A stretch of DNA of 29,405 bases from NCBI GenBank assembly GCA_964016885.1, contig CAXHJY010000771.1, positions 1-29,405 on the forward strand, in the 5' to 3' direction. This stretch comes from Eledone cirrhosa. Lineage: Eukaryota. A program made the translations under genes and the position numbers. The notes beneath the pieces are model-generated. The model was given only the letters and a program-made list of their open reading frames with translations. It did no database searches and had not been told where the DNA came from. This document shows positions 2,286 through 29,319 of this stretch, piece after piece; within the stretch, counting starts at the first letter, position 1; each line of letters begins with the position of its first letter.

Positions 2286-2341
<56 letters not shown>

Positions 2342-2626
2342 CAAATAACGAAACGAAATTAAATTTCGTTTCGCTTCTAACTCACTTTTGTATGACTGAC
2401 GCTTAAACAATTAAGTTAAAGTGTACATCTATATATGTATACGGAAGTATTAGTATGCATATAAATACACACATGTATACATATGTACATGTACTGAGTT
2501 TTTCACTAGACACTTTACAGTGAGTGTCAGCTAGTCTGTATGTAACCACACAGACGGACCGGGTTTTAGAGTCATACGAGTTTTCAAGGAAACACATTTC
2601 CTCTATTCTACAGAGGGCCAGACAGG

Positions 2627-2671
2627 AATATTGGACTAGTTTCGATGTTATTACATCTCATCAGCAATATT
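2627..2671 (-). ncRNA. Type I hammerhead ribozyme, family B (intact consensus)
   Basis: AAUAUUG-CUGAUGA-GAUGU aaua ACAUC-GAAA-CUAG-UC^-CAAUAUU. 7-bp stem I, 5-bp stem II, palindromic ACUAGU stem III, GUC site. Confidence 0.92.
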
Positions 2672-3095
2672 TACCCATCTTCCGGCTTCTCTGGAGAATT
2701 GTAAAAGCACATATCGTTATATGCTTTTCCTATGAAAATTAGTAGTGGGTAGACTAACTTGCATAGAACGTGAGTCATTGTACGCACCGGTTCAGCGGAA
2801 ACGATAAAAACAAATAACGAAACGAAATTAAATTTCGTTTCGCTTCTAACTCACTTTTGTATGACTGACGCTTAAACAATTAAGTTAAAGTGTACATCTA
2901 CATATGTATACGGAAGTATTAGTATGCATATAAATACACACATGTATACATATGTACATGTACTGAGTTTTTCACTAGACACTTTACAGTGAGTGTCAGC
3001 TAGTCTGTATGTAACCACACAGACGGACCGGGTTTTAGAGTCATACGAGTTTTCAAGGAAACACATTTCCTCTATTCTCCAGAGGGCCAGACAGG

Positions 3096-3140
3096 AATAT
3101 TGGACTAGTTTCCATGTTATTACATCTCATCAGCAATATT
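3096..3140 (-). ncRNA. Hammerhead family B, variant with a G-G mismatch at the base of stem II
   Basis: Same as 2627-2671 except ACAUC is ACAUG (plus strand tttccatg). Confidence 0.8.
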
Positions 3141-3564
3141 TACCCATCTTCCGGCTTCTCTGGAGAATTGTAAAAGCACATATCGTTATATGCTTTTTCT
3201 ATGAAAATTAGTAGTGGGTAGACTAACTTGCATAGAACGTGAGTCATTGTACGCACCGGTTCAGCGGAAACGATAAAAACAAATAACGAAACGAAATTAA
3301 ATTTCGTTTCGCTTCTAACTCACTTTTGTATGACTGACGCTTAAACAATTAAGTTAAAGTGTACATCTACATATGTATACGGAAGTATTAGTATGCATAT
3401 AAATACACACATGTATACATATGTACATGTACTGAGTTTTTCACTAGACACTTTACAGTGAGTGTCAGCTAGTCTGTATGTAACCACACAGACGGACCGG
3501 GTTTTAGAGTCATACGAGTTTTCAAGGAAACACATTTCCTCTATTCTCCAGAGGGCCAGACAGG

Positions 3565-3609
3565 AATATTGGACTAGTTTCCATGTTATTACATCTCATC
3601 AGCAATATT
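3565..3609 (-). ncRNA. Hammerhead family B, variant with a G-G mismatch at the base of stem II
   Basis: Identical to 3096-3140. Confidence 0.8.
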
Positions 3610-3955
3610 TACCCATCTTCCGGCTTCTCTGGAGAATTGTAAAAGCACATATCGTTATATGCTTTTTCTATGAAAATTAGTAGTGGGTAGACTAACTTGC
3701 ATAGAACGTGAGTCATTGTACGCACCGGTTCAGCGGAAACGATAAAAACAAATAACGAAACGAAATTAAATTTCGTTTCGCTTCTAACTCACTTTTGTAT
3801 GACTGACGCTTAAACAATTAAGTTAAAGTGTACATCTACATATGTATACGGAAGTATTAGTATGCATATAAATACACACATGTATACATATGTACATGTA
3901 CTGAGTTTTTCACTAGACACTTTACAGTGAGTGTCAGCTAGTCTGTATGTAACCA

Positions 3956-3992
3956 TGATGAGATGTAATAACATCGAAACTAGTCCAATATT
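3956..3992 (+). ncRNA. 5'-truncated hammerhead family B at the inversion junction
   Basis: Starts at tgatgagatgtaataacatcgaaactagtccaatatt; lacks C3 and the 5' strand of stem I. Confidence 0.8.
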
Positions 3993-4416
3993 CCTGTCTG
4001 GCCCTCTGGAGAATAGAGGAAATGTGTTTCCTTGAAAACTCGTATGACTCTAAAACCCGGTCCGTCTGTGTGGTTACATACAGACTAGCTGACACTCACT
4101 GTAAAGTGTCTAGTGAAAAACTCAGTACATGTACATATGTATACATGTGTGTATTTATATGCATACTAATACTTCCGTATACATATGTAGATGTACACTT
4201 TAACTTAATTGTTTAAGCGTCAGTCATACAAAAGTGAGTTAGAAGCGAAACGAAATTTAATTTCGTTTCGTTATTTGTTTTTATCGTTTCCGCTGAACCG
4301 GTGCGTACAATGACTCACGTTCTGTGCAAGTTAGTCTACCCACTACTAATTTTCATAGAAAAAGCATATAACGATATGTGCTTTTACAATTCTCCAGAGA
4401 AGCCGGAAGATGGGTA

Positions 4417-4461
4417 AATATTGCTGATGAGATGTAATAACATCGAAACTAGTCCAATATT
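4417..4461 (+). ncRNA. Type I hammerhead ribozyme, family B (intact; predicted cleavage after C4454)
   Basis: aatattg-ctgatga-gatgt aata acatc-gaaa-ctag-tc-caatatt. Confidence 0.92.
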
Positions 4462-4676
4462 CCTGTCTGGCCCTCTGGAGAATAGAGGAAATGTGTTTCC
4501 TTGAAAACTCGTATGACTCTAAAACCCGGTCCGTCTGTGTGGTTACATACAGACTAGTTGACACTCACTGTAAAGTGTCTAGTGAAAAACTCAGTACATG
4601 TACATATGTATACATGTGTGTATTTATATGCATACTAATACTTCCGTATACATATGTAGATGTACACTTTAACTTA

Positions 4677-5146
<470 letters not shown>

Positions 5147-5167
5147 CCCACCACACGAAGACCGAAA

Positions 5168-6370
5168 ATGCCACCAAAGTCTCAACAAAACAACAACTCA
5201 CTGAACCAGGACATCTTAAATGAACTCAAAGAGATTTCCTCTAAACTCTCAATTTTGACCAACAAAGTGGACCAAATACACATCTATAAAAAAGGACCCC
5301 ACGAAGAAACAGAAAATACCCAAGAGACGAATATTACTCCAGTATTAACTAAGCTAATCGAAACCATTGAAACAGCAATGCTCCAAAAGCTTGAACAACC
5401 GTTAGAACCCAATCTACGAGATGTTCACTCAGTGAAAAACACCCTAATCAACATATGGACTCAAAAGCTCACAGCCCGCAAATTCGCCCTTTGGAATCTC
5501 CTAAAAAATAATGGCAAGGCAGACATATATGAAAAGTGGCTAAACTCTACCCCAATCATCCTCCCCAAAAAACTCCAAATAAAACCCATCCCGAATGAAC
5601 CAGAAAACCAACAAAGACTTAGGGAAAAGATGGCATTGGAAAAATTTAAAACAGAAATAGAACTGTTGCGATTAAGAGCCAACTCCAACGAAGAAAAATT
5701 CAAGTCACTCGACCAACAGATGGACACAGAAATCTCAAAGCACTCTGAAGGCCTACTCTACAAAAAAACCCTAAAACTTTGGAAAGAAAACTGTGAGGAT
5801 GAAGAACTCACATCCCTCCAGCGATGGGAAAAAAACGCCACCTGGTTCAACAACTACGAAATGGACTTCAAAAATGAACAACATACAGGTAACCCATTTT
5901 TAAAACAAACTAAAACTCACACACCACATGCACAACAAATAACAAAAAAAGTAACAAAACGTCCAACATACCCCCAGCAAAACTATAACGATAATCCCAG
6001 AAACCATAGACAAAACTATAACCCTACTAACAAAAACCAAAGATCCCCGAACACAAGGCAGGACCTGATCCGCAGATCACAACCCACACAAAACCTATTC
6101 CAAAACCGTAGACCCCTGCCCACACAGAGCCTGTTCCAAAACCATAGATCCCAACCCACACAAAGGAACCAAATCTACAACCCGGACTATCAACAAACCG
6201 AACCTCAATACGTCCGAAACTTCTATACAAGACCACACAACAACAGGGGAAATACCATTAGATATAATAATACCAATGAAAAAACATTCCAGAAAAATCA
6301 TTTTTTAGACCAAGGCTACAGGACTCACGACACCCGGTGGCACAAACCGATTTTGAAAAACCGAAAATAA
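5168..6370 (+). CDS. PLE ORF1, 400 aa: E/K/L-rich, probably helical/coiled-coil core and N/Q/R-rich low-complexity C-terminus
   Basis: Uninterrupted ATG ORF directly upstream of and overlapping the RT ORF; MPPK start; repeated SQPTQ/PTQxLFQN motifs. The coiled coil is inferred from composition. Confidence 0.8.
   Translation: MPPKSQQNNNSLNQDILNELKEISSKLSILTNKVDQIHIYKKGPHEETENTQETNITPVLTKLIETIETAMLQKLEQPLEPNLRDVHSVKNTLINIWTQKLTARKFALWNLLKNNGKADIYEKWLNSTPIILPKKLQIKPIPNEPENQQRLREKMALEKFKTEIELLRLRANSNEEKFKSLDQQMDTEISKHSEGLLYKKTLKLWKENCEDEELTSLQRWEKNATWFNNYEMDFKNEQHTGNPFLKQTKTHTPHAQQITKKVTKRPTYPQQNYNDNPRNHRQNYNPTNKNQRSPNTRQDLIRRSQPTQNLFQNRRPLPTQSLFQNHRSQPTQRNQIYNPDYQQTEPQYVRNFYTRPHNNRGNTIRYNNTNEKTFQKNHFLDQGYRTHDTRWHKPILKNRK
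6301..6341 (+). promoter_or_regulatory. Candidate -1 programmed ribosomal frameshift signal (T TTT TTA plus downstream hairpin)
   Basis: ORF1 codons caT-TTT-TTA (6299-6307). The -1 frame is open from here into the RT ORF. Possible weak stem GCUAC-A-GG/CC-G-GUGGC (6315-6341) 7 nt downstream. Confidence 0.7.
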
Positions 6371-8607
6371 TTAACATTTCAAATACAAACCTCTCAGCCC
6401 AACAAGTAAAAATTCTCTCCAAAGGTCTGAAATTCACACCAACACCACAATATCCTAACCCCAACGAGATAAATGACGATATCTCACACTTCTGTAGAAA
6501 ATTACGTCTCACAGAGGAATTCTTTGACAAGGAGAATAACGACGAATCAATTGTACGGAATAAAAGCAGCTACAACCCAACAAAAGGTAGAAACAGAGTT
6601 CTGGACAAATTTTGTGACCACATAGCTACCTTCCCATACCATGAACTACCGCAACCTAAACCCAAACCCAACACAAGTCGAAGGGAATGGGAGATTATCC
6701 ATGAACTAAAAAACAATCCGGACATTGTAATTAAGGAAGCGGACAAGGGAAGTACTGTTGTCATTATGGAGGCTGAAAAATATAAAAATTCTATGTTCTC
6801 TCTCTTACAAAATGCTAATTACTATGAAAGAGTAAAAAACTACCAGCAATCCAAAATAATGACCAAATTAAACACACTGATTTATCGATACCAGGAAGAC
6901 CTAACTAAAAAGGAACGCGATTATTTAACAAATTTTGAATACAAAACCAGCAACCTTTACGGACTTCCGAAGATCCACAAATGTAAAATAATCAACGATG
7001 CCTGTAAACAATCCACCTCAGCCTGCGTGAACACACAATACCCCACAGACCTTAAATTAAGACCAATTGTAGCGGGCCCACAATGTGAAACACACAGATT
7101 GAGCAACTTTATAGACATACTACTGAAACCAATACTGAAACACATACCAAGCCTTGTAAGAGACGATCTGGACCTCTTAAACCACCTCCCCAAACATGTC
7201 AACAACGACACTATTATTGTGTCTTTCGATGTAGTGAATCTCTACACAACGATCCCACACCAATACGGACTAGAAGCAATAGGATTCTGGCTAGAGAAAT
7301 ATCCCAATGAGATACCTGACAGAATAGAAAAAAGCTTCATCACCGAGGGATTAAAATTCATCCCACAGAACAACTTTTTTGATTTCGATGGCAATACTTA
7401 CAAGCAAATATCGGGGACTGCGATGGGCACAAAAGCCGCTCCAACTTATGCCAACTTAGTCATGGCATACTTAGAAGTCCAGATATATGAACAGTCCAAA
7501 TCAAAATACGGATTGAACTTCCACAAATATTTATCAGAGAATTGGAAACGCTACTTGGATGATTGCCTCATTCTTTGGTCCCACACACTCGACCAACTGA
7601 AGGATTTCAAAAACTTAATAAACGGCATCAATAACCACATCCAATTCACAATGGAATACAGCCAAGATCAACTCCCATTTCTGGACATCTTAATCACAAA
7701 AAAAGACACAAATATCGAAACTGACATACACTACAAACCAACAGATTCCAAACAATATCTGCTATTCACCTCCAACCATCCAAAGCACACGAAGACGAAC
7801 ATTCCTTTTAACCTAGCAAGAAGAATTTGCACAATTGTCTCCAATTATGAAACGCGAAATAAAAGACTTCAAGAATTAAAGGAAATTCTACTTGAGAGAG
7901 AGTACCCACTATTACTAATAAATAATGGAATAGAAAGGGCTAAAGCAATAGGCATTGATGAATTACGGAAACAGAAACAAATTCAAGGTACGTCCAATAT
8001 TCTATCATATATCTCAACACACAACCCAAGAAATGCGGAAGCTTACAACACTATTCACAATAACATCCCACTACTAAAACAAAACCCAAGAATGAAAAAA
8101 GCCCTTGAAACACACAAAATAATCAAAAGCAAAAGACAACCAAAATCACTGAAAACATTACTCACCAATGCCAAATTACCTACCACAAACCCACAACCAA
8201 GTATCAAAAAATGTGGTCGCTCTAATTGTGGAACCTGCACTCACCTCATTGAAGGCAACACGTATACATTTAAATCAGGACAAAATTTTACTGTAAAAAA
8301 TCACTTCACTTGCTCATCAAAAAATCTAATTTATGCCATTAAATGTAAAGGATGCAATGAAGATTATATAGGACAAACTAAACTCACACTCAGAAACAGA
8401 ATGACAGTTCATCGCCAACAATTACGAGATCCAACCACGAGACAGATACCACTAAGTGCACATCTAGACATTTGCGCAAGTAATAAGACACCCAAATTCA
8501 AAGTCTTCCCATTTTACCTTTGCGCTAACAATACAACAGAACAAATGCGAATAAATAAGGAAAATATGTTTATTCAAAAATATAGACCAACATTAAATAA
8601 GGTTTAA
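6337..8607 (+). CDS. PLE reverse transcriptase / GIY-YIG endonuclease (probably entered by frameshift at about 6301-6307 rather than from the GTG at 6337)
   Basis: LSKGLKFTP, EADKG, LYGLPKIHK, LRPIV, SFDVVNLYT, GTAMG, RYLDD, LPFLD, YKPT; Cys linker CGRSNCGTC; LIYAIKC...YIGQT...R...H; E...IQKYRPTLN. Confidence 0.96.
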   Translation: MAQTDFEKPKIINISNTNLSAQQVKILSKGLKFTPTPQYPNPNEINDDISHFCRKLRLTEEFFDKENNDESIVRNKSSYNPTKGRNRVLDKFCDHIATFPYHELPQPKPKPNTSRREWEIIHELKNNPDIVIKEADKGSTVVIMEAEKYKNSMFSLLQNANYYERVKNYQQSKIMTKLNTLIYRYQEDLTKKERDYLTNFEYKTSNLYGLPKIHKCKIINDACKQSTSACVNTQYPTDLKLRPIVAGPQCETHRLSNFIDILLKPILKHIPSLVRDDLDLLNHLPKHVNNDTIIVSFDVVNLYTTIPHQYGLEAIGFWLEKYPNEIPDRIEKSFITEGLKFIPQNNFFDFDGNTYKQISGTAMGTKAAPTYANLVMAYLEVQIYEQSKSKYGLNFHKYLSENWKRYLDDCLILWSHTLDQLKDFKNLINGINNHIQFTMEYSQDQLPFLDILITKKDTNIETDIHYKPTDSKQYLLFTSNHPKHTKTNIPFNLARRICTIVSNYETRNKRLQELKEILLEREYPLLLINNGIERAKAIGIDELRKQKQIQGTSNILSYISTHNPRNAEAYNTIHNNIPLLKQNPRMKKALETHKIIKSKRQPKSLKTLLTNAKLPTTNPQPSIKKCGRSNCGTCTHLIEGNTYTFKSGQNFTVKNHFTCSSKNLIYAIKCKGCNEDYIGQTKLTLRNRMTVHRQQLRDPTTRQIPLSAHLDICASNKTPKFKVFPFYLCANNTTEQMRINKENMFIQKYRPTLNKV

Positions 8608-8717
8608 TATACATTATGTCAACACCACTATATGACATACACACACACACATAACACCTTCTACTTTAGAAAATAAAAACCCGAACTAAATAAACCTTAA
8701 ACATACGTTTGCACTGG

Positions 8718-9079
8718 CAATACAATAGCAAACACGAAAAAGTCAGGAAAATATGTTCATTCAAAAATATTCCTACTAAAGGAATCATTTTCCTACACAC
8801 ACACATACACACACACACAATATATATATATATATATATTCTCTTCATCTTAACATGCTAACCATACTCCCACACACATAACACCCATACACACACATAA
8901 CAACCCCCACACCTACAACACCCTCCCCATTTCTACTAATAGAACCACTTTCCTACACATATATATATACACACACACAAAATATATATTCTCTCTATCT
9001 AACATACTCGCACACACACACATAACACACAACTCCCTCCCCCATCTCTACTAATAGAATCATCTTCCAATACACACAT

Positions 9080-9090
<11 letters not shown>
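8718..9090 (+). repeat. 3'UTR internal duplications (degenerate copy of the ORF2 end; three tactaa-ta/ag-gaa...acacac subrepeats)
   Basis: 8718-8771 resembles 8529-8584 (aggaaaatatgttYattcaaaaatat); subrepeats start near 8774, 8934 and 9049. Confidence 0.65.
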
Positions 9091-9112
<22 letters not shown>

Positions 9113-9623
9113 AGCACACAAATAAACACATATCTTCAGTCTCAATAGAAAATCTGAACTCTGACACCTGAACTCTGACAGCTGGCCATATTCACTGAAC
9201 CAGAACATTTCTCCCAATCCCTTTTCCCTTGACCACTATCTCTCCATTGTCATAACATTCACTATAAAGACTACAGAATAGTTTTCCAAATAAGGGCGCA
9301 AAAATGTAATGAAAACTTGTTCACGTGACAGCCAAATTTCATTTATAACCAACCAAAAAAAAGCCTTCGTGAGCCTCATTTTTTCAAGTAAAAAGAAATT
9401 CAAACACTCATATATGAAAAAACAACCTGTGACAAACCCCCCCTCTCTTATTTGAAGAACTATTGTAACGCGAACTGGCGCGAAATTTATTATAATTATT
9501 GACAAACCAATCAAATTACTTCTCGAAAAACCTGGTTTTCGAGCCACTTTTTCCATATAAAACAAGTAACATTTAGAGACCAACCAGATGTGAGAAAAAC
9601 CACAGACCCTCCATCTCAACTCA

Positions 9624-9661
9624 CCTTTTGAAAAGCAGAAGAACTGCGAAACCGGTAAAGG
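9624..9661 (+). ncRNA. Minimal type I hammerhead with compensatory U3-A8 core, family C (pLTR of the intact PLE)
   Basis: cctt-TTGAAAA-gcag aagaa ctgc-GAAA-ccgg-ta^-aagg; palindromic ACCGGU stem III; GUA site after 9657. Confidence 0.8.
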
Positions 9662-9720
9662 AACCAAATAAATATATATATTTAAAAAAAAAAATAAGAC
9701 TTCAGTTGCATTTTCGATTT

Positions 9721-9815
9721 CATCCCTTTTTCTTTATACTTCCACTCGTGTAGGACACCTCGGTTGTTTTTCATTTTGTAAAAAAAAAACAAAAAACCTC
9801 ACTTTCTAATATATA
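9721..9815 (+). repeat. 3' terminal direct repeat of the PLE
   Basis: Matches 5061-5146 and runs into (TA)n. Confidence 0.93.
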
Positions 9816-9918
9816 TATATATATATTACCCACTCTACTATTATCCACTCTACTACCTCAAGTATTGAGTACATTGGTGCGTTATGGTCCACCTGGTTCC
9901 TTACCACATTTCCTTCGT

Positions 9919-9950
<32 letters not shown>

Positions 9951-10148
9951 TATATGTATATATATATACATTTATATATATATGTATAAATTGGAATAAA
10001 TGCTCTGAAATAGCGATATATATGTGAATATAGACATAGAATATTCGAAAATATTCTGTATGTTTATAATAAACATTTTGAAGACCTAATCGCTATAGAA
10101 TAGAATACGTCACGTATTACAATTAGATTCTCGATAAAAGCAAGGGAA

Positions 10149-10191
10149 GTAATCTACGCGTTTCATTCTTTTTAGAAATCATCAGGACTAC
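10149..10191 (-). ncRNA. Type I hammerhead ribozyme, family D
   Basis: GUAGUC-CUGAUGA-U UUCU aaaa AGAA U-GAAA-CGCG-UA^-GAUUAC; palindromic ACGCGU stem III. Confidence 0.88.
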
Positions 10192-10458
10192 ATATCCAGT
10201 GCTTTTATCGAGAATGACACAGCTAGAGACTTATAGAATACTTAGCTGTGTACAGGAACTGGTTTGAAAGAGCGGTTGCCGGTCCGGCAGAAATTAGAAA
10301 TTGGAATAAATGCTCTGAAATAGCGATATATATGTGAATATAGACATAGAATATTCGAAAATATTCTGTATGTTTATAATAAACATTTTGAAGACCTAAT
10401 CGCTATAGAATAGAATACGTCACGTATTACAATTAGATTCTCGATAAAAGCAAGGGAA

Positions 10459-10501
10459 GTAATCTACGCGTTTCATTCTTTTTAGAAATCATCAGGACTA
10501 C
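10459..10501 (-). ncRNA. Type I hammerhead ribozyme, family D (second unit)
   Basis: Identical to 10149-10191. Confidence 0.88.
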
Positions 10502-10626
10502 ATATCCAGTGCTTTTATCGAGAATGACACAGCTAGAGACTTATAGAATACTTAGCTGTGTACAGGAACTGGTTTGAAAGAGCGGTTGCCGGTCCGGCAG
10601 AAATTAGAAATTGGAATAAATGCTCT

Positions 10627-11624
<998 letters not shown>

Positions 11625-11703
11625 GAAAGGAGAAGAGAGACTATGGACAGAGAAAATAACCAAGACGAACACACAGACACACAAAATAGAGTAGATAATA
11701 ACA

Positions 11704-14194
11704 ATGAGCCAGAGGAAAGAGACAGGAGCAATAATGAGAGACATAGAAACAACCATGAGGCTGTTGGGAAATAGAAATAGAAACAACACAACTAACAATA
11801 ACAATAGCACTAGTACACATAAAGCAGCAGCCTGGAACTCTACTTTTTATAATCTCTCCGATAAGTCGTTCGACCTGAGACGAGTCGACGCCACGACTTT
11901 AGCTTTTAACAAACGCACGCAATTACCGTCGCAGGTCGATGAAAAAACAGAAGCACAATTTAGTATAGCTAGATCTAAACTTAGAAATATTATAGAACAG
12001 TATAGCAAGAAGCATAATAGAATGGAGGCCCAGCAACTGGGAGAAAAATCTGCAAATGGCTTGCGTAAGCTCATGCAGCGCTCGCGTAATGGAGAGATAG
12101 CATGCTTTCCAACAGACAAGTCTGGCAGAATGTCGGTTGACAGCCTGCCAAACTACACCCAGGCAATGCAACTCCACATCACTAACACAAGAGAGGTAAC
12201 ACGACAAGAGCATGAGGATAGAGAAAAAGCCCTCAATTCCCATATGGTGATGTGGACAAATATAATGCAGCCCAACAAAAGGACTGCCAACAACTTCCAG
12301 GCCAGGAACAATGACGTGCCAGCGTTGTATGGGCTTCGAAAAGACCATAAAACGGGGAGTGACCCTGTCACGGGACCACCAACACGGCCAGTCTGTGGAG
12401 CTAACATTGCTAGTAACTACAGACTGTCCTACTTCCTCTCCCTGATCATACGCGCCATCATTGAAATGTCCCCAGATGTATGTGACAGCACGGAGGACCT
12501 CCTCAGCGGAATCGGCGCGAGTAACCGATCTAGGGACCTAACAAACTGCATAATAGGTAGTATGGATGTTGTGTCTCTGTATCCATCTATTGACGTGGAT
12601 TTTGCTGTGGAGAAATGCGTAGAAATGATCAGTGAGAGCAATGTTGAGTTCCGTGGGGTTGATACCAGTGAGCTGGGACTCCTACTTAAACTTACCTATA
12701 GTAATAATTACCTAGACACATACAACCTTAGAAACTGTGCCCTACAAGACCAGCAAGAGGCAGACCACCTACCATTACCTCAATAGCCAAGAAAACCCAC
12801 ACAGATAGATGGAACGGGTGGACCAGAGCCATACGGACCCCCGAAAACCACGATGAACTAAAGAAAATGATTGCACATGCGGTGGGGGCCAGCATAAAAT
12901 TAACCCTTAAGGAACATATGTTCAAATTTAATGGAAAAACATATGCCCAAGAGGAAGGAGCAGCCATTGGGGTTAACATTGCAGGCGACATAGCTAACTT
13001 ATTCATGGTATGGTGGGACAGTAGACTTAAACTTAAACTTAACCCTGATAATGTACTCCCGCTACGTTGATGATATAAACATCGTAGTTAAACACACACC
13101 CACTATAGAACAGTCAGGAATTAGAGAAAAACACAATGGAAAGCATCCAGCAAATAGCTAACTCCATCCACCAGGGTATTAGAGTTACTATAGACTACCC
13201 AAGTAAACACCCCAACTATCGATTACTTGTACTAGACACAGAGCTCTGGTTAGATACCATTAATAACAAAAAACAAATCCTCCATTCCCATTATGCCAAA
13301 CCCATGACTTCCAAATATCTGATCCACCGAAACTCAGCTGTTTCGGACCATACCAAAATCAACATACTGATTGCGGATTTGGTACGGCTGATGAGAAACG
13401 TGTCCCGCATGTGCAACCCCGAAGAACTAGAGAGACACATACAACACTTCATCCACCGTATGCAGTTCTCTGGTTACAATCAGAGAGATAAAATCAGAGT
13501 GTATAGAGGAGCCAGAACCAAATGGGAAAAAATTTTAAATAATGACACAAAGGTGACCTGCCCTTTGTATAGGAGCAAATTTTGGAATAGAATAGAAAGA
13601 ACTAGGAATAAGGCTAATAGAATAAACTCATGGTATGATAGCAATAAATACCAGAGTGTAATGTTCATCGATACAACCCCTAGAGGTGAATTAGCTTACA
13701 AATTTAGAAGGGCCCTAGATAAACATAAACTCAATATTAAGATAGTAGAAAGACCAGGTACCTCCACAAAAACACTTATTAGCAAGACATACCCTTTTCA
13801 AAGACCACCCTGTATATATAAGAAATGTATAACCTGTAAATTAAGCTCCCACATTAACTGTAAAACTAGAAATGTAGTATATAGCATAAGATGTACTGAA
13901 GGACAATGTAGAGACAAAAATATAGTGTACATAGGTGAGACAGCTCGTAGTATGGGGGAACGGATAAATGAACACTGGCGAGACATTCAAGATAGTAAAG
14001 AATCATCTGTACTCTACCAACATGCTAAAATAGAACATAAGGGTAAATTAGAGAACATAGAAATAAAAATAGAATCTACACACAGAAAAGACGCAATGTT
14101 TAGACAAATCACAGAGGCAATAAACATAAAAGAATTACAACCAAAATTAAATAGAAAACATGAGTGGAACAGCAACATCATAACTTACAATTAA
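11704..14194 (+). pseudogene. Disrupted RT-GIY-YIG ORF of PLE family 2, copy A
   Basis: Fragments 11704-12786, 12867-13070 and 13136-14194: PTDKSG, LYGLRKDHK, TRPVCG, SMDVVSLYPSI, GAAIG, LDTELW, YAKP, MQFSGY, CxxxxCxxC, VVYSIRC...YIGET. Frameshift near 12735 and deletion near 13041 relative to copy B. Confidence 0.92.
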
Positions 14195-14290
14195 GGACAA
14201 AATGAAAACACACACGCACATAGAACAAACAACAAACCGGTAACATGTAAATAAACATATAAAAAAACAAATATAAACACACACAGACAC

Positions 14291-14348
14291 CCGGATGTGG
14301 CGCATGCGCAGACTGAGCACACTACACACACACAGAAACAAGATGGCG
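14291..14348 (+). promoter_or_regulatory. Candidate pLTR Pol II promoter motifs (ETS-like CCGGATGT, NRF1-like GCGCATGCGCA, YY1-like CAAGATGGCG)
   Basis: Motif matches by eye, retained at 27286-27343; no functional evidence. Confidence 0.4.
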
Positions 14349-14395
14349 TAAGACAGAACAAAGGAGAGGCACAGAAACAAAGAAAAGAATCCCCA

Positions 14396-14438
14396 GTCAC
14401 TGAAGAGGTCACAGAATGTGTGACGAAAGAACTTTGAC
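14396..14438 (+). ncRNA. Type I hammerhead motif, family E (PLE family 2 pLTR)
   Basis: gtca-ctgaaga-g-gtcaca gaatg tgtgac-gaaa-gaac-tt-tgac; very short, non-palindromic stem III; CUU triplet. Confidence 0.7.
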
Positions 14439-14467
14439 AATATATAAACAACCATCTGGTTGTGGAA

Positions 14468-14613
14468 CCTTCCGTCTTTGTTTCCGCATTTGTCTATGTG
14501 TTTCCGGAAAGACGAGGCCCTGGTTTTAGTGTGTTCCTTGAAAGGAACACACTATAACCAGTGCCTCGTCTTTCCGGAAACACATAGACAAATGCGGAAA
14601 CAAAGACGGAAGG
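14468..14613. repeat. 146-bp near-perfect hairpin palindrome (5' inverted duplication of a third PLE fragment)
   Basis: ccttccgtctttgtttccgc...gtgttcct tga aaggaacac...gcggaaacaaagacggaagg, centre near 14540. Confidence 0.92.
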
Positions 14614-15857: not shown

Positions 15858-15906
15858 GATTCTACAGGACTAGAACTGTTTCATTCTTTAGAAATCATCA
15901 GGAATC
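15858..15906 (-). ncRNA. Type I hammerhead, family G (left arm of palindrome)
   Basis: GAUUC-CUGAUGA-U UUCU aa AGAA U-GAAA-CAG uucuaguc CUG-UA^-GAAUC. Confidence 0.85.
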
Positions 15907-15910
15907 ATCA

Positions 15911-15963
15911 GAGAATCCTGATGATTTCTAAAGAATGAAACAGTTCTAGTCCTGTAGAATCTC
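15911..15963 (+). ncRNA. Type I hammerhead, family G (right arm of palindrome)
   Basis: gagaatc-ctgatga-tttctaaagaat-gaaa-cag ttctagtc ctg-ta-gaatctc; one mismatch in stem I. Confidence 0.82.
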
Positions 15964-24089: not shown

Positions 24090-27000
24090 TATACGGCAAC
24101 ACAAGAATAGATGACGATGAGATATCTGTGTTATGTTTACACCCGAAATTTGCGACATTCAAGAAGGTAAATATGATTAGTTGTCTGTCAGAAATAGAAA
24201 AATAATTTACAAAACTACGCTGGAGCCTCAAAAACAAAAACAAAAGCAACAATATACGCACACCAATATACAAGACACATCCCAACAACAACAGACACAC
24301 AGACACAAACAACAATAACAACGACACACACACCAACAACAACGACAATAACAATATACCCACCCAGAAACAACAACAACAGACACGCTGACACAAACAA
24401 CAATAACAACACACACAACAATAATAACACACACGGAGACAACAACACACATCAACAACAGCACACATCAACAACAACACACACGCATTCAATGCCTCTC
24501 ACCACCACCACAATCTTTACAAACACACAGACACAGAAAACAAGTAATGACAGTAGCACAGAAATCACAGAAATAAGGGAAAGTAATAGGATTAAAAGGA
24601 GAAGGGAGACTAAGGACAAAGAAAATAACCAAGACGAACACACAGGACACACAAAATAGGGTAGATAACAACAATGAGCCAGTGGAAAGAGATAGGAGTA
24701 ATTATGAGAGACATAGAAACAACCACGAGGCTGTTGGTGGAAATAGAAATAGAAACAACACAACTAACAATAACAATAGCACTAGTACACATAAAGCAGC
24801 AGCCTGGAACTCTACTTTCTATAATCCCTCGGATAAATCGTTCGAGTTGCGACGGGTCCACGCCACGACTTTACCATTTAACAAACGCATGCAATTGCCG
24901 TCGCAGGTCGATGAACAAACAGAAGCACAATTTAGTATAGCTAGATCCGAACTTAGAAATATTATAGAACAGTATAGCAAGAAGCATAATAGAATGGAGG
25001 CCCAGCAACTGGGAGAAAAATCTGCAAATGGCTTGCGTAAGCTCATGCATCGCTCGTGTAATGGAGAGATAGCATGCTTTCCAACAGACAAGTCTGGCAG
25101 AATATCGAATGACAGCCTGCCAAACTACATCCAGGCAATGCAACCCCACATCACTAACACAAGAGAGGTAACACCACAGGAGCATGAGGATAGAGAAAAA
25201 GCCCTCAATGCCCATATGGTGATGTGGACGAATATAATGCAGCCCAACAAAAGGACTGCCAACAACTTCCAGGCCTGGAACAATGACGTGCCGGCGTTGT
25301 ATGGGCTTCGAAAAGACCATAAAACGGGCAGTGACCCTGTCACGGGACCACCAACACGGCCAGTCTGTGGAGCTAACATTGCTAGTAACTACAGACTGTC
25401 CTACTTCCTCTCCCTGATCATACGCCTCATCATTGAAATGTCCCCAGATGTATGTGACAGCACGGAGGACCTCCTCAGCAGAATCGGCATGAGTAACCGA
25501 TCTAGGGACCTAACAAACTGCATAATAGGTAGTATGGAGGTTGTGTCCCTGTATCCATCTATTGACGTGGATTTTGCTGTGGAGAAATGCGTAGAAATGA
25601 TCAGCGAGAGCAAGGTTGAGTTCCAAGGGATTGATACCAGTGAGCCTGGACTCCTACTTAAACTTACCCATAGTAATAATTACCTAGACACATATGACCT
25701 TAGCAACCTGTGCCCTACAAGACCAGCAAGAGGCAGACCACCTACCATTACCTCAATGGCCAAGAAAACCCACACAGATAGATGGAACGGGTGGACCAGA
25801 GCCATACGGACACCCGAAAACCACGATGAACTGAAGAAAATGATTGCACATGCGGTAGGGGCCAGCATAAAACTAACCCTTAAGGAACATATGTTCAAAT
25901 TTAATGGAAAAACATATGCCCAAGAGGAAGGAGCAGCCATTGGTGTTAGCATTGCAGGCGACATAGCTAACTTATTCATGGTATGGTGGGACAGTAGACT
26001 TAAACTTAAACTTAAAGAACAATTAGAAGCCCCTTAACCCTGAAAATGTACTCCCGCTACGTTGATGATATAAACATCGTAGTTAAGACACCCCCTCTAG
26101 AGAACAGTCAGGAACTAGAGAAAAACACAATGGAAAGCATCCAGCAAATAGCAAACTCCATCCACCAGAGCATTAGAGTTACTATAGACTACCCAAGTAA
26201 ACACCCCAACCATCAATTACCTGTACTAGACACAGAACTCTGGTTAGATACCATCAACAACAAAAAACAAATTCCGCCATTCCCATTATGCCAAACCCAT
26301 GACTTCCAAACATCTGATCCACCGAAACTCGGCCGTTTCGGACCATACCAAAATCAACATACTGATTGCGGATTTGGTACGGGTGATGAGAAACGTGTCC
26401 CGCATGTGCAACCCCGAAGAACTAGAGAGACACATACAACACTTCATTCTCCGTATGCAGTTCTCTGGCTACAATCAGAGAGATAAAATCAGAGTGTATA
26501 GAGGAGCCAGAACCAAATGGGAAAAAATGGTAAATAATGACATAAATGGGACCTGCCCCTTGTATAGGAGCAAATTTTGGAATAGAATAGAAAGAACTAG
26601 GAACAAGGCTAATAGAATAAACTCATGGTATGATAGCAATAAATACCAGAGTGTAATGTTCATCGATACAACCCCTAGAGGGGAATTAGCTTACGAATTT
26701 AGAAGGGCCCTAAACAAACATAAACTCAATATTAAGATAGTAGAAAGACCAGGTACCTCCATAAAAACACTTATTAGCAAGACATACCCTTTTCAAAGAC
26801 CCTCATGTATAGATAAGAAATGTATAACCTGTAAAATAAGCCCCCATATTAACTGCAAAACTAGAAATGTAGTGTATAGCATAAGATGTACTGAAGGACA
26901 ATGTAGAGACAAAAATATAGTGTACATAGGTGAGACAGCTCGTAGCGTAGGAGAACGGATAAATGAACACTGGCGAGACCTTCAAGATAGTAAAGAATCA

Positions 27001-27189
27001 TCTGTACTCTACCAACATGCTAAAATAGAACACAAGGGTAAATTAGAGAACATAGAAATAAAAATAGAATCTACACACAGAAAAGACGCAATGTTTAGAC
27101 AAATTACAGAGGCAATAAACATAAAAGAATTACAACCAAAATTAAATAGAAAATATGAGTGGAACAGCAACATCACAACTTACAATTAA
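24090..27189 (+). pseudogene. Disrupted RT-GIY-YIG ORF of PLE family 2, copy B
   Basis: Fragments 24090-24205, 24682-26037, 26046-about 26275 (YSRYVDD, LPVLD) and 26299-27189 (YIGET). Stop at 24203-24205, frameshifts near 26035 and 26275; catalytic SMD is SME here. Confidence 0.92.
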
Positions 27190-27390
27190 GGCGAAAATGA
27201 AAACACACACACACATAGAACAAACAACCAAATGTTAACATGTAAATAAACAAATAAATAAGTGAACATAAACACACACAGACACCCGGATGTGGCGCAT
27301 GCGCAGACTGAGCACACAGCACACACACAGAAACAAAATGGCGTAGGACAGAACAAAGGAGAGGCACAGAAACAAAGAAAGGAATCCCCA

Positions 27391-27433
27391 GTCACTGAAG
27401 AGGTCACATAGTGTGTGACGAAGGAACTATGAC
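27391..27433 (+). ncRNA. Hammerhead family E, copy B (GAAA to GAAG; CUA triplet)
   Basis: gtca-ctgaaga-ggtcaca tagtg tgtgac-gaag-gaac-ta-tgac. Confidence 0.62.
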
Positions 27434-27586
27434 AATATATAAACAACTATCTGGTTGTGGAACCAACCAACCAACCAGAAATTTATAAATTTATAAGTTT
27501 ATTGGCAACATGACCCTCCCTAAGTATAACAATATCGGTTTCAACACACGATTTCAGATAAAGAATCTTGCTAAACAAATTCAGAA

Positions 27587-27682
<96 letters not shown>

Positions 27683-27809: not shown

Positions 27810-27880
27810 CACATATATATATATATAAGTATGTATGTATACGTACATACATATATGTATACAGACGTATAGTAGCATGC

Positions 27881-27925
<45 letters not shown>

Positions 27926-28091
27926 TACACATATACATACAGGTACACATACATATATGCCATACATATATGCCATACATATATGCCTGACCGACTTGAC
28001 TCACTCGATATGCAAATTAGGCTGCTCAGCCGTTAATTTTCATAAGGAAAGTATATACTTTCGAACGTTCAACTATCTGGCAGAAGGGTAT

Positions 28092-28134
28092 ACGGTGCTG
28101 ATGATAGCTAACAAGCTTGAAACTAGTACATCGT
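28092..28134 (+). ncRNA. Type I hammerhead, family J (intact)
   Basis: acggtg-ctgatga-t agc taacaa gct t-gaaa-ctag-ta^-catcgt; palindromic ACUAGU stem III. Confidence 0.9.
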
Positions 28135-28291
28135 TCCTGTGTCAGTGTTGAACAAAAAGGTGACGTGGTTGCCTTAACACCGTACGGCATAAAATTCAGG
28201 CTGTTCAGTTTGTTTACAAACGAACAAAGCGGCGTTATAATAAGGGTCCGCTAAACTGATACGTGCATATATCTATGTGTACTTGTATGTA

Positions 28292-28326
<35 letters not shown>

Positions 28327-28563
28327 GCGTGCTACTGTACGTCTGTATACATATATGTATGTACGTATACACACATACTTACATTTAAGTAAGTGCCGTA
28401 CTAAGAGTGAGAAATGAAATTTCGTTTTCATTTTATTTCAACTTATCGTTTTCGTATGCCTGACCGACCTGACTCACTCGATATGCAAATTAGGCTGCTC
28501 AGCCGTTAATTTTCATAAGAAAGTATATACTTTCGAACGTTCAACTATCTGGCAGAAGGGTAT

Positions 28564-28606
28564 ACGGTGCTGATGATAGCTAACAAGCTTGAATCTAGTA
28601 CATCGT
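28564..28606 (+). ncRNA. Hammerhead family J, second unit (GAAA to GAAU, probably inactive)
   Basis: Same as 28092-28134 except gaatctagta. Confidence 0.75.
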
Positions 28607-28833
28607 TCCTGTGTCAGTGTTGAACAAAAAGGTGACGTGGTTGCCTTAACACCGTACGGCATAAAATTCAGGCTGTTCAGTTTGTTTACAAACGAACAAA
28701 GCGGCGTTATAATAAGCGTCCGCTAAACTGATACGTACATATATGTATGTGTACCTGTATGTATATATATATATATGCATGCTACTGTACGTCTGTATAC
28801 ATATATGTATGTACGTATACACACATACTTACA

Positions 28834-29319
<486 letters not shown>

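Follow-up and report, generated by a model that had tools for sequence, protein, structure and literature searches.

Near its right end the window, as the whole analysed stretch of 29,405 nucleotides is termed here, carries an insertion of a putative retrozyme of clade B (the 472-nt family) composed of two arms. The forward arm (27982..28837, + strand) comprises 1.8 units with two hammerheads, is 5′-truncated at unit position 308 and terminates in (TA)n at the short 3′ site, one of the two fixed ends described below. The inverted arm of the same insertion extends over unit positions ~131-239 (27826..27961 on the - strand by sequence; 27820-27924 by BLAST), and its outer end is likewise the short site in (TA)n. 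Where the two arms meet, a 13-nt unit is repeated 3.1 times (27948..27987, + strand), which is likely to reflect template stutter. A full monomer, taken from cut site to cut site, occupies 28129..28600 (+ strand, 472 nt), with a predicted circular fold of -150.4 kcal/mol in which 69% is paired. Within it, a 62-nt “tail” (28385..28446, + strand) runs from the short 3′ end (after 28384) to the long 3′ end (after 28446, between TTAT and CGTTT), and is predicted to contain the 3′ arm of a long-range helix together with a AAAUGAAA/UUUCAUUU hairpin. GC content is 0.32 at 28001-29000, and no open reading frame of at least 100 aa covers the unique part of the unit, the only frames being those running through TA runs. 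The clade-B unit is low in GC and non-coding, and an LTR structure was judged to be absent, arrays beginning at variable points.

The two copies lie 472 nt apart, as previously noted, with cores at 28098 and 28570. Hammerhead 1 (28092..28134, + strand) is of type I, with stem I ACGGUG/CAUCGU, core CUGAUGA (28098-28104), stem II AGCU/AGCU closed by U.U, GAAA and the palindrome ACUAGU; the predicted cut falls after GUA at 28128. Hammerhead 2 (28564..28606, + strand) reads GAAUCUAGU: A15.1 is changed to U (28594) and the palindrome is broken, with the cut site (after 28600) intact, and this motif would likely be unable to supply an active core. An earlier note on this DNA described stem I as changing from AAUAUUG/CAAUAUU in the 469-nt family to ACGGUG/CAUCGU here while the core and ACUAGU are kept, a description that fits the first copy and fails for the second, in which the core is changed and the palindrome broken. 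Stem II, previously read as AGC/GCU, is in fact U-AGCU-AACA-AGCU-U, four pairs closed by U.U at 10.1/11.1; both families share a 14-nt layout of this stem, with U.U in the 472-nt family where the 469-nt family has G-C.

Other elements are also present in the window. A Penelope-like element at 5062-9819 comprises a first frame of 409 aa and an open frame of 775 aa for RT + GIY-YIG, and by sequence its 3′ region bears a hammerhead-like variant whose palindrome is ACCGGU. A second Penelope-like family is represented by two frameshifted copies (11420-14469 and 24592-27588), in which a hammerhead motif lies close to the 3′ end (cores at 14400 and 27395) and the tail, at ~55 nt, is near the retrozyme tail length. 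On the - strand, a 310-nt tandem repeat at 9988-10641 contains a hammerhead motif with U.U at the stem II base and the palindrome ACGCGU; it resembles the units of the 469-nt (A) and 472-nt (B) families weakly (z 3.6-3.7, ribozyme included). More hammerhead-core motifs occur at 15901-15918, 16633, 19761 and 20884, several as inverted pairs. A look-alike of the window (L182/L183; G000:C2:305906000-305920000) is devoid of 2338-10626, which holds the A array, the first Penelope element and the 310-nt repeat, and of one Penelope copy; it has a shorter 13-nt run at the arm junction and ~1 kb of extra TA-rich sequence between its two B hammerheads, and represents either the other haplotype or a duplicate of the window.

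The 469-nt family, termed A, forms a two-armed array, with a left arm on the - strand (2335..3955), whose long 3′ end lies in (TA)n at 2335, and a right arm on the + strand (3956..4684), whose short 3′ end lies in (TA)n at 4684. Left-arm copies with cores at 3602 and 3133 carry G.G, not G-C, at the stem II base; the right-arm hammerhead (core at 4424) is intact. The A and B units align with a local score of 595, compared with 125 ± 19 for dinucleotide shuffles (0/500 as high). When the ribozyme is left out, homology is retained both upstream (z 13.8) and downstream (z 8.6), each with 0/1000 shuffles, and the first 130 nt downstream of the ribozyme, which are free of the TA-rich hairpin, give a z of 6.1. 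Identity amounts to 299/426 aligned bases pairwise, and to 0.60-0.62 between the main clade medoids in the multiple alignment. The match is thus significant outside the hammerhead on either side, and the proposal that the 472-nt repeat is a diverged relative of the 469-nt family stands. Other parts of that description require revision. Unit length is not constant: owing to a variable internal TA run, 28 window-type monomers range from 453 to 603 nt, and most units of sister subfamilies measure 407-443 nt. The supposedly shared block tgactcac (TGACTCAC) is retained in most other B copies and in family C only as its CTCAC/CCCAC part, and aatttcgttt was probably matched out of register; the fold aligns two hairpins there with a C-G to U-A exchange.

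Covariation in the ribozyme was assessed in a gap-free alignment of ten natural copies picked to represent recurrent types. The stems are paired in 90.7% of 140 cells, with 20 cells changed on both sides; 6/14 pairs show changes in both partners, and four pair types occur at one stem I position. None of 500 shuffles reached the paired percentage or the covariation score, a test that is inflated by relatedness between copies, while the number of pairs with a double change was reached by 71/500, and slid structures pair 23-47%. The compensatory stem changes across subfamilies thus hold with more copies. Since covarying hammerhead families inside one genome have already been described in the accessible text of earlier reports (PMC4209133; PMC7229834), such covariation is not new; it is real but ordinary. 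Family A matches Rfam HH9 with 31.8 bits, below the gathering score of 52. Matches to Rfam microRNA families, also below their gathering scores, were dismissed as artefacts of TA runs.

Folded as circles, A and B display the same helix order, with z scores of -7.6 to -12.1 (0/60 shuffles each) and the sense strand more stable than the antisense in 4/4 cases. In the predicted folds, tgcaa.ttag and taattttcata, two blocks singled out in the earlier note, constitute the two arms of one hairpin (28008..28043, + strand), CTCAC pairs with GUGAG, both sides being altered in B2 copies, and a helix closing ~200 nt presents two clean exchanges between clades in a gap-free alignment. Folds were compared with a pairing-aware aligner, using neutral mutants of A at the same identity as control. 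Pairs of A located outside the ribozyme and the TA hairpin were also independently predicted in three B-clade monomers (28/93, 35/90 and 41/87); the 89 neutral simulations shared 3.0 ± 4.0 pairs, with a maximum of 17. The number of double changes beyond the ribozyme (5-8) remains within the neutral range (4.3 ± 2.2). With sequence-only alignment outside the ribozyme, p was 0.08-0.45 for the window's A-B pair and 0.0002-0.006 for A-B3, and RNAalifold on a cross-clade MAFFT alignment lost most helices by misregistration. Variants shared within A/C avoid paired sites (20/240 versus 25/110, p 0.0004); those shared within the B clade show no such avoidance (83/179 versus 53/123; 72/197 versus 58/124), a test of G.U versus A.C asymmetry was null, and the TA hairpin changes freely in length. 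A branched fold of the whole unit is therefore predicted to be conserved between clades. The suggestion of selection on RNA structure is supported, by the whole-unit fold as well as by stem covariation, and extends beyond the ribozyme.

Genome-wide abundance was estimated from exact ribozyme-pattern matches in the 3.0-Gb assembly, which number 25,666 for clade B and 4,081 for family A (0 for reversed-pattern controls); a pattern excluding both returned 5,738 matches, with family C dominating among the matches listed. The retrozyme repeats are dispersed at high copy number, and long arrays also exist. Seventy distinct monomers group into an A/C clade, with medoids 89% alike, and a B clade, with main subfamilies at 79-93%. 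The best 40 full-length matches to the window's B unit are 99-100% identical to it, indicating that subfamily B is young. Arrays at L005, L008, L017 and L101 contain subfamilies or clades directly adjoining one another, including one apparent mixed B/B2 unit. In run X24, which derives from another organism, two contigs bear clade-B sequence, one of them spanning a tandem junction. On the sense strand of family C copies (L087-L116), A-to-G changes affect 15/122 A sites and T-to-C changes 3/111 T sites (p 0.006), an excess that resembles what RNA editing of the template would give; it is absent from A and B, and in family C there is no enrichment at paired sites.

The arrays of every family end at two fixed positions, beyond which (TA)n follows. 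The long end is located inside the TTATCGT block, after TTAT (299 in A, 303 in C, 298 in B and 272 in B3), and the short end ~56-74 nt upstream of it; the boundary between TTAT and CGTTT is a fixed 3′ insertion end in both clades. Target-site duplications, which in non-LTR retrozymes exceed 4 bp where they occur, are unreadable because the ends lie in (TA)n. Ends were tallied in 170 sequences from loci recovered by similarity and pattern searches, not by random draw, after exclusion of U1/U2 loci and ten duplicate or look-alike loci. These sequences contain 69 head-to-head junctions, five of which reached the locus edge, leaving 64 in the tally. One long and one short end were combined in 35/64 two-armed insertions (21 in clade B and 14 in clade A/C), and no insertion had two long or two short ends; 24 of the remaining 29 have one fixed end and five have none, some of the latter being alignment breaks. 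Fixed ends abut TA in 80/94 cases. Inner 5′ ends are scattered over the whole unit, with 3/128 at the cut site. The A array of the window obeys the long-plus-short rule; its clade-B insertion, with two short ends, is an exception and was left out of the tally.

This arrangement recalls Penelope-like elements, whose footprint consists of 5′ truncation, an inverted arm, a tail on one end and (TA)n targets (accessible text of PMC8557442), the tail being the segment between two internal RT start sites, with both DNA strands cut and extended (accessible text of PMC11167929). Retrozyme insertions match it in their 5′ truncation and inverted truncated arm, with a one-ended tail in 35/64. In the locus L181 (G000:C1:41489652-41493390), a family-A arm with the long end stands head to head with a 5′-truncated Penelope arm with the short end, with no TA between the two, and the inversion junction (unit positions 85/439) is identical to that of the window's A array. 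The Penelope arm presents ~46-54% protein identity to the RT-endonuclease frame of the window; its family, with 1,108 search candidates and a tail of ~36 nt, displays long-plus-short ends in 9/9 two-armed insertions seen whole (30 loci). Such a hybrid was seen once; by accident alone it would fit the long-plus-short rule half of the time, and it could be a deletion between two insertions. Among the 30 loci of this Penelope family, one of which is L181's own place, no second hybrid with a retrozyme was found. L003 was considered as another hybrid and rejected, its junction containing TA and Penelope's own inverted arm. Comparison of the units with three Penelope 3′ regions revealed no homology (z -1.4 to 0.8). 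Penelope elements have been proposed as retrozyme mobilisers (PMC7229834; bioRxiv 10.64898/2026.07.22.740005, as far as their accessible text goes).

We consider it highly probable that the 472-nt repeat represents a single insertion of a non-coding tandem element that bears one type I hammerhead motif in each unit and forms a clade sister to the 469-nt family, and that this element is likely a non-LTR retrozyme, which a Penelope-like RT-endonuclease copied into (TA)n. Multimeric transcripts would undergo self-cleavage as double hammerheads through ACUAGU, with both partners mainly from one clade, and monomers may close into circles. The Penelope protein would nick both strands of the TA tract, and copying would begin at two internal RNA sites, one per strand, thus leaving one long and one short outer end; tandem units could arise by copying round the circle or along an uncut multimer. 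In the double-hammerhead geometry, stem I is formed between the two strands. Computed energies are -17.8 and -20.0 kcal/mol for the A and B homodimers, and -17.2, -14.8 and -2.9 kcal/mol for the mixed dimers A x C, B x B2 and A x B, respectively. Since stem I would form between strands, clades A and B are predicted to cleave each other poorly through their common ACUAGU. The window's own B pair would cut the downstream site only, so that this copy is likely unable to release a monomer. Ribozymes which, like these, have a two-pair stem III and a palindrome have been described as working as dimers (accessible text of PMC7229834 and PMC4209133); 8/9 Xenopus retrozyme dimers gave no cleavage in vitro (accessible part of bioRxiv 10.64898/2026.07.22.740005). 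A more specific proposal, which we advance tentatively and rate as nearly as likely right as wrong, is that the conserved fold would be a handle for the Penelope protein, fixing two start sites around the hairpin-bearing tail, in place despite ~61% identity. With a two-headed complex, one strand would then receive the copy of a retrozyme RNA and the other that of a Penelope RNA, naming the L181 family as a mobiliser, and the stem I exchange would stop the clades from cutting each other.

The strongest alternative, which appears possible though somewhat doubtful, is that the same Penelope enzyme takes as template a linear transcript that reads through an existing array and remains uncut, with the hammerhead and circles contributing little to spreading. 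Such a template would suit the scatter of inner 5′ ends, just 3/128 of them at the cut site, and the 85/439 junction common to the window and L181, as if the template had been transcribed from a two-armed locus already in place; in addition, ribozyme cleavage was unnecessary for insertion in vitro (accessible text of PMC11167929). However, the core and the palindrome have been preserved between clades that are ~61% alike and whose stems have been exchanged, so the ribozyme was under selection, and other retrozymes accumulate as circles (accessible text of PMC7229834).

An unlikely explanation for the shared upstream blocks is that they form a small-nuclear-RNA-type promoter with octamer and AP-1-like boxes, like that of newt satellite 2, and that the unit thereby transcribes itself. 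The octamer-like ATGCAAAT is found in 13/16 aligned monomers, its pairing partner varying at two bases, yet the three deviant copies include A-to-G changes that preserve pairing. Moreover, among the distinct U1/U2 promoters examined, neither an exact octamer nor TGACTCA occurs in the upstream 330 nt. With a profile from eight U1/U2 promoters, 7/8 left-out promoters score 8 to 25, against -15 to -26 for the four unit types, whose scores lie inside the range of shuffles. A U1/U2-type promoter (octamer, AP-1-like box and proximal element) was rejected because the boxes are absent upstream and the profile is at shuffle level. The conserved blocks put forward as candidate cis elements can accordingly be retained mostly as helix arms, with ttatcgttt as an insertion end, and not as a promoter of this type. 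Upstream of U1/U2 in this genome (L063-L086), a TCCCTT-containing box at ~-260, AATTA at ~-90, TCAGT at -56 to -58 and a TATA-like run at ~-30 are observed, without an octamer. Finally, a satellite-like DNA repeat spread at the DNA level, with DNA palindromes for a fold and a relic hammerhead, is very improbable and already disfavoured. In its favour are the long arrays, the null result of the strand-specific G.U test and the free length variation of the TA hairpin; against it, the fixed 3′ ends, variable 5′ ends and long-plus-short rule are unexpected from unequal crossing-over, and the hammerhead multiloop covaries on one strand.

The enzyme that spreads animal retrozymes has been proposed and little tested, in the accessible text of PMC7229834 and bioRxiv 10.64898/2026.07.22.740005. 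Two diverged clades, homologous start sites, a candidate partner and an in vitro assay (accessible text of PMC11167929) make the mobiliser directly testable, and the clade comparison indicates which RNA elements to mutate. What the present comparison adds is the predicted fold shared across clades, the homologously placed start sites, the predicted insulation of the clades and one hybrid naming a candidate partner; a literature search confined largely to freely available main texts found no prior description of fold conservation or of cephalopod retrozymes. Hammerheads cutting only with their own clade would constitute a natural set of orthogonal dimer ribozymes.

The closest known systems are the metazoan non-LTR retrozymes (PMC7229834), which, in the accessible text, share with the present repeats tandem units with one type I hammerhead, low GC, the lack of a coding frame, a highly self-paired predicted circle and two families per genome; the axolotl HHR_Amex2 also has U.U at the helix II base. 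Their dimers cleave better than monomers, and their circles and cleavage have been demonstrated, whereas sequence and predictions form the basis here. Units here measure 407-603 nt, and the same text proposes Penelope mobilisers but makes no mention of fixed ends, of insertions with two arms or of a fold conserved from one family to another. The animal retrozymes of Li, Clavereau and Pollet (bioRxiv 10.64898/2026.07.22.740005, accessible part), regarded there as non-autonomous Penelope sequences, likewise co-occur with Penelope and exist as monomers, dimers and multimers genome-wide; there the Penelope link consists of pseudo-LTR homology, and here of an insertion footprint and one hybrid. The minimal dimer-forming hammerheads of Penelope elements (accessible text of PMC4209133) are similar in their short palindromic helix III and in presenting consensus families with compensatory changes in one genome. 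In contrast, stem I here has 6-7 pairs extended by further helices, stem II is short and G10.1-C11.1 is replaced in the most abundant clade. GIY-YIG Penelope-like elements (PMC8557442; PMC11167929, in their accessible text) display the same 5′ truncation, inverted truncated arm, one-ended tail and (TA)n targets, but the retrozyme unit has no ORF (no RT and no GIY-YIG) and its tail of ~56-74 nt compares with 30-40 in those elements. As in PMC11167929, two internal start sites lie downstream of the hammerhead; in the accessible text of that report they are non-homologous to the target, whereas both retrozyme ends share a few bases with TA, which speaks against the parallel.
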